In this document: positions 95-14,219 of the stretch, piece by piece
How positions within the stretch are numbered: the first letter of the stretch is position 1
Layout: each line of letters begins with the position of its first letter
Origin: Escherichia coli
Lineage (GTDB): Bacteria > Pseudomonadota > Gammaproteobacteria > Enterobacterales > Enterobacteriaceae
DNA length: 64,000 nucleotides
Reading direction: 5' to 3' (one strand)
Assembly (NCBI RefSeq): GCF_003991155.1
Contig: NZ_CP031293.1
Made by a program: the position numbers and the translations under genes
Notes under the pieces: model-generated
Told to the model about the DNA's origin: nothing
Database searches by the model: none
What the model saw: only the letters and a program-made list of their open reading frames with translations

Positions 95-441
95 AAATTC
101 TCCTGTAAAACGCGGAATATACCGTACCTCTTAGCGGGGAAAAACAGGGTTATGCGGCAACGTCGAAATTAAATGTGATCTGCCACGCCTTTTATCACAA
201 AAGTGTCTCCGGAAGTACGATGCAAATTTGCCTGGCAAAATAAGGATAATCAACATATTACGAATCGCTGCACACCTGTGCTGATGACTACTACGCAGAG
301 AAACAAATGTGCAAGAGAAAGCGCTATTTCTCCCCATGCAAAGAGTGAAAAATCGCTTTGAAAGGCCATCATGATGGGGTTATATCAGATCAAGCGGTGA
401 GAAAGCGTATTTGCACAAATGTGCAGAACCAGGAGGCGGCA

Positions 442-1389
442 ATGGAAAACAGTGACGATATCCGTTTGATTGTGAAGATTGCCCAACTCTATTACGAACA
501 GGATATGACGCAGGCGCAAATCGCGTGCGAACTGGGTATTTACCGCACCACCATCAGCCGCTTGCTTAAACGAGGCCGCGATCAGGGAATTGTCACCATC
601 GCCATCAACTATGACTACAACGAAAATCTCTGGCTGGAGCAGCAACTGAAGCAAAAGTTTGGCCTGAAAGACGTTGTGGTGGTGTCGGGAAATGATGAGG
701 ATGAAGAGACTCAACTGGCGATGATGGGGTTACACGGCGCGCAACTGCTGGATCGCTTGCTGGAGCCTGGCGATATTGTCGGTTTTTCCTGGGGTCGCGC
801 GGTGAGCGCACTGGTTGAAAACTTGCCGCAGGCGGGGCAATCGCGGCAGTTAATCTGCATACCAATTATTGGCGGCCCGTCCGGTAAACTCGAAAGCCGC
901 TATCATGTAAACACATTAACCTACAGCGCGGCAGCGAAGTTGAAAGGGGAATCGCATCTCGCGGATTTTCCGGCTCTACTGGATAACCCCTTAATTCGTA
1001 ATGGGATCATGCAGTCTCAGCACTTTAAAACCATCTCTGCCTACTGGGATAATCTGGATGTCGCCCTGGTGGGAATTGGCTCACCGGCCATTCGCGACGG
1101 CGCTAACTGGCATGCGTTTTATGGTGGTGAAGAGAGTGACGACCTGAATGCCCGCCAGGTTGCTGGCGATATTTGCTCGCGCTTTTTTGATATTCACGGC
1201 GCAATGGTTGAAACGAATATGAGCGAAAAAACACTCTCTATCGAAATGAATAAATTAAAGCAGGCACGATATTCCATTGGCATTGCCATGAGTGAAGAAA
1301 AATACAGCGGAATTGTTGGTGCACTGCGTGGAAAATATATTAATTGTCTGGTAACGAATAGCAGCACAGCTGAACTATTACTGAAATAA
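442..1389 (+). CDS. sorC: SorC-family transcriptional regulator of the L-sorbose operon
   Basis: ORF 358-1389; preferred start ATG 442 (MENSDDIRLIVKIAQ) preceded by AGGAGG; N-terminal HTH plus sugar-phosphate-binding domain; first gene of the sorCDFBAME order. Confidence 0.75.
   Translation: MENSDDIRLIVKIAQLYYEQDMTQAQIACELGIYRTTISRLLKRGRDQGIVTIAINYDYNENLWLEQQLKQKFGLKDVVVVSGNDEDEETQLAMMGLHGAQLLDRLLEPGDIVGFSWGRAVSALVENLPQAGQSRQLICIPIIGGPSGKLESRYHVNTLTYSAAAKLKGESHLADFPALLDNPLIRNGIMQSQHFKTISAYWDNLDVALVGIGSPAIRDGANWHAFYGGEESDDLNARQVAGDICSRFFDIHGAMVETNMSEKTLSIEMNKLKQARYSIGIAMSEEKYSGIVGALRGKYINCLVTNSSTAELLLK

Positions 1390-10535: not shown

Positions 10536-14219
<3,684 letters not shown>

Follow-up and report, generated by a model that had tools for sequence, protein, structure and literature searches.

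The rluF-sorC intergenic region of Escherichia coli: a probable composite control region of the L-sorbose operon with candidate SorC boxes outside two overlapping perfect palindromes

The intergenic region between rluF and sorC, the regulator gene of the sor (L-sorbose) operon, was analyzed in a stretch of 64,000 nt of Escherichia coli DNA (contig NZ_CP031293.1, referred to as the window). The gap covers positions 95-441 and is followed by the sorC start codon, ATG, at 442; its bounds agree with the RefSeq annotation of strain 118UI, which is 100% identical here. The first gene of the operon is sorC (442-1389, plus strand), with a ribosome-binding site, AGGAGG, at 431-436. Its product matched Klebsiella pneumoniae SorC (PDB 2W48) over the full length with the same architecture (E-value 2.9e-182), and consists of an N-terminal helix-turn-helix (HTH) domain and the Pfam domain Sugar-bind. 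A short-chain dehydrogenase/reductase (SDR) gene, four subunits of a mannose-class phosphotransferase system (PTS) together with sorE, and then pepE follow 3' of sorC. A first-pass annotation had described the gap as 347 nt of untranslated DNA with two overlapping perfect palindromes, and both statements were confirmed. Palindrome 1, GCAAATTTGC, is located at 222-231 and palindrome 2, TTTGCC-T-GGCAAA (TTTGCCTGGCAAA, 6-1-6), at 227-239; the sequence around them reads ...cgaTGCAAATTTGCCTGGCAAAAtaagg....

The comparison outlined below suggests that the gap is probably a composite control region of the L-sorbose operon in which the SorC boxes lie elsewhere and the palindromes are not the SorC operator. 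The palindromes are located in the spacer between two of these boxes, O1 and O2, inside a conserved segment of 40 bp. Orthologous regions were collected from 27 enterobacterial loci (SorC identity 70-99%) of the genera Escherichia, Pseudocitrobacter, Citrobacter, Klebsiella, Raoultella, Mangrovibacter, Serratia, Pantoea, Cedecea, Enterobacter, Entomohabitans and Kluyvera, and the 420 nt upstream of sorC were aligned. Together with the window, 28 sequences were compared; individual loci are given by L numbers.

A 14-bp box, TGCACA-NN-TGTGCA, is repeated in the gap at 194-207 (O1), 269-282 (O2), 300-313 (O3) and 412-425 (O4), with a possible fifth copy (O0) at 174-187. The candidate box O1, ATCACAAAAGTGTC (CAC-N4-GTG), is a full box whose core ACAAAAGTG was kept in 25-26 of 26 loci, and its distance to O4 was fixed across loci. 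The second full candidate box, O2 (TGCACACCTGTGCT), has a fixed position and one mismatch to TGYRCA-NN-TGYRCA. The candidate half-box O3, GAAACAAATGTGCA, has its right half conserved as CAAATGTGCAA and its centre 31 bp from that of O2; in Kluyvera it is a full palindrome, TGCACAAACGTGCA. The candidate main SorC operator is O4, TGCACAAATGTGCA, a perfect 6-2-6 palindrome six bases 5' of the AGGAGG. It was invariant in 25 of the 28 sequences (two carried one central change, one an outer-arm change), and the segment ATTTGCACAAATGTGCAG (409-427), which holds it, was essentially invariant in all of them, with a conservation of 0.97. The motif CAC-N4-GTG was observed three times in the gap versus 0.05 expected (p about 0.0005, by shuffling), and O2 and O4 were the only sites in the window that matched TGYRCA-NN-TGYRCA with at most one mismatch. 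In at least 20 genera-level loci the positions of the boxes were fixed. O1-O4 agree with what is expected of operators of the SorC/DeoR subfamily, namely a matching box geometry, conservation, repetition and co-occurrence with the regulator gene; the palindromes, with lengths of 10 and 13 bp, show neither the 14-bp geometry nor the conservation.

The distances between the conserved anchors (TGTGATC, O1, the core of a candidate integration host factor (IHF) site, O3, the -10 block and O4; 174-427) were identical in about 22 of 26 loci, despite spacers between them that had diverged to 40-60% majority identity. The only common indel was a single nucleotide in typical E. coli between O1 and the IHF core. 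Centre-to-centre distances were 75 bp for O1-O2, 31 bp for O2-O3, 112 bp for O3-O4 and, if O0 is accepted, 20 bp for O0-O1, giving four or five boxes over about 250 bp. No partner boxes were found about 20 bp from O2, O3 or O4. A pairing of half-operators two helical turns apart fits only O0-O1, and O0 is ambiguous with a CRP site.

More distant homologues were used for assignment of the box to a protein. Among 17 non-enteric loci from Firmicutes and Chloroflexi (25-47% identity), eight had a box within 200 nt upstream of the sorC homologue, and box density upstream of the non-enteric homologues was 3.24 per kb versus 0.019 per kb in the rest of the loci (approximately 170-fold). The recognition helix GIYRTTISR, which is found in the enterics and in three Firmicutes, was associated with TGCACA-NN-TGTGCA, and the helix SRVKVYR (SRVKVHR in L041) of five Chloroflexi with TGTGCA-NN-TGCACA. 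The Chloroflexi loci L035 and L039, with the SRVKVYR helix, had no box within 200 nt, and none was found with homologues that carry other recognition helices. Since the box is enriched upstream of distant homologues and its variant tracks the recognition helix, it is the best candidate for the SorC operator. On this comparative basis, SorC most likely recognises TGCACA-NN-TGTGCA and not the palindromes.

SorC has been placed in the SorC/DeoR subfamily (PMC11229326). It was similar to Bacillus subtilis DeoR over the full length (E-value 1.7e-39), and both base-contacting arginines of DeoR aligned with arginines of SorC. The 16-mer at O4, TTGCACAAATGTGCAG, agreed with the left half-operator of DeoR, TTGAACAAAATTTCAA, at 11 of 16 positions in the same register and with the same outer TTG...CA frame (operator sequence and structures from PMC11229326). 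As of 2010, operators of the family were known only for DeoR and CggR of B. subtilis (PMC2943609); neither an experimentally defined SorC operator nor a report of SorC-family operators later than 2010 was found in the literature searched.

The two palindromes were evaluated against 2000 dinucleotide-preserving shuffles of 95-441. A perfect 5+5 palindrome occurred 0.36 times and a 6+6 palindrome with a spacer of 0-1 occurred 0.16 times per shuffled gap, and neither palindrome is statistically remarkable alone. The gap as a whole is rich in palindromes with 5-nt arms and spacers of up to 4 nt (9 observed versus 1.67 expected, p about 0.0015), a count that includes those at O2 and O4 and the E. 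coli-specific CCATCATGATGG (366-377). In a search for the palindromes elsewhere, the 18-mer spanning them had no second copy in the window at up to 3 mismatches.

Palindrome 1 was complete (5 of 5 pairs) only in E. coli, strain SCPM-O-B-8794 excepted, and in one Pseudocitrobacter metagenome-assembled genome; elsewhere 1-4 pairs were formed, mostly 3-4. Palindrome 2 had all 6 pairs only in the typical E. coli allele and 1-4 pairs elsewhere. This allele is exactly 1 nt shorter than that of every other genus between O1 and the IHF core, inside palindrome 2, and the perfection of palindrome 2 results from this shortening. E. coli E69 carries the longer form, TTTGCCTGGCGAAAA, and the E. coli variants of O157:H7, TTTGCGTGGCAAA, and strain N1, TTTGCCTAGCAAA, break palindrome 2 without compensation. 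Of about 2865 complete E. coli genomes that are sor-positive, 2284 had a match to the 38-mer 207-244, exact in 2200, and about 20% had none. Conserved instead was an asymmetric core, TGCAAnTTTG (221-230), which overlaps palindrome 1 and has a majority fraction of 0.78 compared to 0.40-0.52 in the flanking spacers. The left arm of palindrome 1, GCAA, was better conserved than the right arm, and AAA at 237-239 was conserved, too. The distal segment with the palindromes is missing from both Kluyvera loci and has diverged beyond recognition in Entomohabitans. The first-pass annotation had named absence of conservation in orthologous sor promoters as the outcome that would speak against its operator proposal, and the symmetry is not kept in the alignment of the 27 loci. 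As judged from this alignment, perfect symmetry is a trait of the E. coli lineage that arose with the 1-nt shortening and is not what selection has preserved.

Two further elements were assigned in the gap. The candidate IHF site (237-260, plus strand) is composed of the A-rich stretch AAAATAA at 237-243 and the core AATCAACATATTA at 248-260. The core is an exact match to the IHF core consensus WATCAANNNNTTR, of which five exact matches were found in 64 kb versus 2.0 expected. It was kept as WATCAR-N4-TTR, with variable N4, in all 25 loci that have the distal segment, and in the strict form WATCAA in 21 of them. The right arm of palindrome 2, GGCAAA, overlaps the A-tract 5' of the core. The sequence at 248-260, together with the A-tract, is likely an IHF bending site and is the best-supported component of the 40-bp segment that holds the palindromes.

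A proximal promoter, P1, is proposed at 346-394 on the plus strand, with an A-tract at 346-352, a -35 hexamer TTGAAA at 358-363, a spacer of 17 nt and a -10 hexamer TATATC at 381-386. The segment GGGTTATATCAGATCAAG (377-394) had a conservation of 0.94 and was found in each of the 28 sequences, the reduced Kluyvera loci among them, and CTTTG(A) was conserved 17 nt upstream of it. In a sigma-70 consensus scan no promoter was called in the gap, and P1 was placed by conservation only; it was missed by the scan because the last base of the -10 hexamer is C. Promoter readings of the palindrome block on either strand were rejected, as the hexamers were poor and unconserved.

A third conserved element, AAATGTGATCTGCCACGCCTTT at 171-192, is perhaps a CRP site or the fifth SorC-type box O0, according to its base pattern. 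The heptamer TGTGATC was invariant in 26 of 26 loci. Compared to the CRP consensus TGTGA-N6-TCACA, the left half fits at 5 of 5 positions; for the right half, E. coli has 2 of 5 matches and many genera have 3 of 5. With a spacer of 4, the right arm matched TCACA at a mean of 3.54 of 5 positions versus 2.46 of 5 with the CRP spacer of 6. The spacer of 4 gives a 14-bp palindrome of box geometry at 174-187, with its centre 20 bp from that of O1, as in the tandem arrangements of DeoR, CggR and the distant homologues. GATC (Dam) sites at 177-180, in this block, and at 388-391, in the -10/start block, were invariant across genera, and a methylation-sensitive step at these sites is conceivable.

The evidence on the palindromes is also compatible to some degree with their having no function of their own, a possible explanation although a doubtful one. 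They would then have arisen by chance from an A/T-rich, IHF-wrapped segment (TTT...AAA) together with the lineage-specific 1-nt deletion, and TGCAAnTTTG would be the distal edge of IHF-bent DNA. The chance expectations given above, the restriction of a perfect palindrome 2 to the shortened E. coli allele and the polymorphism of the palindromes within E. coli agree with this. The right arm also coincides with the A-tract 4-11 nt 5' of the IHF core, and an A-tract in this position is the arrangement of the lambda H' site. Less easily accommodated is GCAA at 222-225, which was conserved at >=85% across genera and is separated from the IHF core by at least 22 nt, a distance that reaches or exceeds the limit of the usual IHF footprint. 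Furthermore, the NagC/Mlc-like match described in the following would be a coincidence.

Positions 222-244, i.e. the palindromes with their flanks, form a 23-mer, GCAAATTTGCCTGGCAAAATAAG, centred on T233, that resembles the operators of NagC and Mlc. As a candidate, it might be the operator of a global regulator of the ROK family, NagC-type rather than Mlc-type, which would link the mannose-class PTS operon to the amino-sugar or glucose status, as for manXYZ; we consider this unlikely. NagC/Mlc sites are quasi-palindromes of 23 bp in which only TT at -6/-5 and AA at +5/+6 are invariant (PMC4288165), and in NagC sites +/-11 is G or C and the arms are AT-rich (PMC2806358). The 23-mer possesses every one of these critical positions, with G at +/-11. 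A position weight matrix was built from 12 sites, namely eleven K-12 sites (nagE-B, ptsG, manX, mlc, malT, ptsH, glmU and chbB) and the footprinted LEE1 site (PMC5401889); the K-12 sites were hand-picked by the author, with TT/AA as a requirement. The 23-mer had the second-highest score among 63,978 positions of the window, 13.2 bits, compared to leave-one-out scores of 13.5-18.5 bits for the training sites, with one at 3.4. Conservation of the TTT and AAA arms around a free centre would fit such an operator, and the polymorphisms of typical E. coli strains fall at -1, +1 or outside the critical positions.

The score was reached by 3.1% of the gap shuffles, and it came from self-chosen training sites. 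Moreover, consensus sequences of sigma-54, sigma-28, FNR, Fur, PurR/LacI-type regulators, Cra, Fis, Lrp, TyrR and NtrC had been compared by eye and none of them fitted; since about ten other factors had been compared first, the NagC/Mlc match is not significant after correction. The orthologous sites scored from -7.9 to 12.4 bits with a mean of 6.1; only 4 of 25 reached 10 bits, and in 10 of 25 the site was among the top four of its own locus. Several did not exceed 3 bits, with 1.8 for E. coli E69, 2.5 for K. michiganensis and 0 for Pantoea. The site is also single and has no convincing overlapping promoter. Known Mlc sites overlap promoters, and NagC usually acts via paired sites. Two other matches of the matrix were recorded in the window, 13.4 bits at 11244-11266, inside a reverse-strand open reading frame of 1234 aa, and 11.4 bits at 1471-1493 (TTAAATTTGCAGAATAAAATCAT), right where the SDR gene that follows sorC begins. 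Both are probably chance matches and the specificity of the matrix is limited. The NagC/Mlc match in the gap is regarded as a borderline lead, derived from sequence likeness, that is unlikely to hold.

A distal promoter that includes the block is very unlikely. It would consist of a poor -35 hexamer, TGCAAA (221-226), and a -10 hexamer, GATAAT (245-250), with help from CRP at 171-192. The -10 hexamer agrees with the consensus at 5 of 6 positions and was kept as nAnAAT in other genera, and a CRP-like site lies upstream. Against this, the -35 hexamer matches at only 3 of 6 positions with a spacer of 18 nt, the consensus scan called no promoter, CRP would be placed near -75.5, off the usual class I positions, and the conservation of CA (251-252) and TTA (258-260) is accounted for by the IHF consensus rather than a -10 element.

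The proposal of the first-pass annotation that the palindromes are the SorC operator, or one of several, is the least likely of all: they lie 5' of an autoregulated regulator gene in a palindrome-rich region, and the conserved TGCAA is identical to the five outer bases of the right half of the box (GTGCAA in Raoultella and Pantoea), but in the best register over 205-245 they match the box at only 8 of 12 positions (4 mismatches), their symmetry is neither conserved nor fixed within E. coli, Kluyvera lacks the segment and Entomohabitans has a diverged one while O4, O2 and/or O3 are kept, and no similar palindrome was seen upstream of the distant homologues. The expectation of operator architecture upstream of the regulator gene was borne out for the gap, which is a dense regulatory region with palindromic operators, though not for these two palindromes. 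The choice between a SorC site and a global-regulator site had been left undecided; the overlap with the NagC/Mlc-like 23-mer and the adjoining IHF consensus lean towards the latter, both assignments being candidates. A global-regulator or architectural role of the palindromes is possible, and they would contribute at most as part of a bent spacer or of an accessory-regulator site.

In the composite control region favoured here, SorC tetramers would occupy pairs of boxes. O4, at about +20 to +33 relative to P1, would mediate autorepression in the manner of the downstream CggR operator. O2 and O3, with centres at about -117 and -86 and 31 bp apart, would be positioned for sorbose-dependent activation; SorC was reported to activate as well as to repress, as far as the account of Wohrl et al. 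1990 given in PMC2943609 indicates. IHF would bend the 75-bp spacer between O1 and O2, by which bridging between the distal pair O0/O1 and the proximal boxes could take place. Across 240 bp hardly any indels were seen despite a spacer turnover of 40-60%, which supports a phase-dependent complex.

Several points weigh against this interpretation. The assignment of sites to proteins is comparative throughout. The -10 candidate, TATATC, ends in C in place of the usual T, and P1 was not called by the consensus scan. The distance of 31 bp between O2 and O3 and the single O4 differ from the tandem of approximately 20 bp in DeoR, CggR and the distant homologues. TGCAAnTTTG, at 0.78, is as conserved as O1 or the CRP-like block, so that something constrains it; weak SorC contact there is possible, TGCAA being also the outer end of the box. 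Finally, the borderline NagC/Mlc score of 222-244 would, if taken at face value, give palindrome 2 a real function in E. coli.

A more far-reaching version, which must be considered improbable as a whole, is that of a phase-locked nucleoprotein switch. Four or five SorC boxes at invariant distances would be arranged over approximately 250 bp around an IHF bend, and SorC tetramers would alternate between a loop of the distal boxes with O4 (repression) and occupancy of O2/O3 (sorbose-dependent activation). The region would then represent an AraC-like light switch built from a SorC-family protein, to which the 1-nt deletion in E. coli adds a NagC/Mlc input within the bend.

The arrangement was compared with known systems. 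B. subtilis DeoR (dra-nupC-pdp) has the same regulator architecture, an HTH and a sugar-phosphate-binding domain, and it is a tetramer that uses two half-operators, as SorC tetramers on pairs of boxes would. Its half-operator is an A-rich-centred palindrome of 16-18 bp with outer TTG...CAA, like the 16-mer at O4. DeoR has one operator of 39 bp that covers -60 to -21 and whose halves are separated by about 21 bp, whereas the sor region has four or five boxes over about 250 bp, one of them downstream of the putative promoter, and SorC differs in the activation reported in addition to repression, according to the citation in PMC2943609. CggR of B. subtilis is, like SorC, encoded by the first gene of its own operon, and its tetramer binds tandem repeats. 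Its operator is located downstream of the transcription start (+32 to +77; PMC11229326), as is O4 relative to the candidate promoter. It differs by a winged-helix DNA-binding domain of approximately 100 residues, by the sequences recognised and by a single tandem operator with no distal sites.

The E. coli NagC/Mlc operators (nagE-B, ptsG, manXYZ, ptsHI, malT, mlc, glmUS and chb) share with 222-244 the form of a 23-bp quasi-palindrome, and the sor operon would be a mannose-class PTS target like manXYZ. In contrast to these operators, 222-244 scored at or below the bottom of the range, was weak or absent in several orthologues, and has no partner site or overlapping promoter. Loop-forming switches with a bending protein, araBAD (AraC and CRP) and nagE-B (NagC and CAP), offer a resemblance only: several operators over 100-250 bp, a bending site between them, strictly conserved spacing and a dual activator/repressor. 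The bending protein would be IHF instead of CRP, and any looping in the sor region is putative. By analogy, the sor region resembles other multi-operator sugar-operon control regions such as ara, nag and deo.

Several of the distant loci had two boxes 19-20 bp apart, at or just 3' of a promoter. In L028 (-48 to -15) and in L036 and L045 (both -45 to -10, relative to the start of the homologue), the boxes are exactly 20 bp apart and either follow immediately on a good TTGACA-N17-TATnnT promoter or are placed shortly before the ribosome-binding site. These pairs have the form of a clean DeoR/CggR-type tandem operator and could serve as a simpler model system.

The interval between rluF and pepE in Kluyvera cryocrescens (L023, 2640-5700) and in L024 contains a sorC homologue (70% identity) and one open reading frame of 272 aa, without PTS genes. 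This frame is probably a dehydrogenase gene, and the operon is reduced to sorC and this gene. The control region there is reduced to O3 (the full palindrome), P1 and O4, and the locus looks like a decayed or minimal sor locus.

At the other end of the gap, rluF runs on the reverse strand (1-94), with its start codon at 92-94 as indicated by the 118UI annotation and the sequence. Positions 95-130 represent the rluF leader and promoter-proximal DNA (reverse strand), which is common to sor-negative E. coli and is conserved as a block across genera; in a sor-negative E. coli strain only 95-129 of the gap was matched. The -10-like TATATT at 116-121 on the reverse strand may be an rluF promoter element. 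In L005 (about 2530-2660) and also in L006, L010, L012-L014, L017 and L031, approximately 130 nt of extra DNA separate the start codon of rluF from the shared leader block. This DNA includes ...GAATTCCTGGGAGCATAGATAACTATGTGACCAGGGTGAG..., which we take to resemble an ERIC/IRU repeat; the upstream gene is still rluF and no match was obtained in Rfam.

The codon aligned with the sorC start at 442-444 is ACG, ACC, ATC or ATA in 13 loci (L006, L007, L009, L012-L014, L016-L018, L020, L021, L025 and L031), which have an ATG two codons upstream of the E. coli start (ATG-GCG-ATC-GAA...). The clade of E. coli and Pseudocitrobacter lacks this upstream ATG and has a shifted ribosome-binding site; accordingly, the sorC start has shifted between lineages. 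Two further perfect inverted repeats, CCATCATGATGG (366-377) inside the spacer of the candidate promoter and GAGAAAGCGCTATTTCTC (315-332, 6-6-6), were found in the E. coli clade only and not in other genera.

Other readings of the gap were rejected. A search of 1-1500 against Rfam at a permissive threshold gave no RNA family match. A hairpin or terminator reading of the palindromes was discarded, because a scan called none in the gap and the stems would leave loops of 0-1 nt. Small open reading frames (203-361, plus strand; 131-337, minus strand; and a 9-codon frame starting with ATG at 371-400) were dismissed, as the conservation lacked a codon pattern; the invariant block 377-394 showed no third-position variation.

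The gap was found in 2872 of 5426 complete E. coli genomes; the L-sorbose operon is carried by about half of the genomes of the species. The palindromes themselves are an ordinary feature of an ordinary sugar-operon promoter, and their reading as an operator is unsupported. As co-factors in the control of the operon, the comparative data suggest IHF and possibly also NagC/Mlc or CRP. The correlation between recognition helix and box across phyla is a further by-product of the comparison. SorC is the name-giver of a large regulator family, for which these data provide a testable box with four fixed positions. If the phase-locked switch, improbable as it is, were true, the box would be the first operator definition for the member that gave this family its name.

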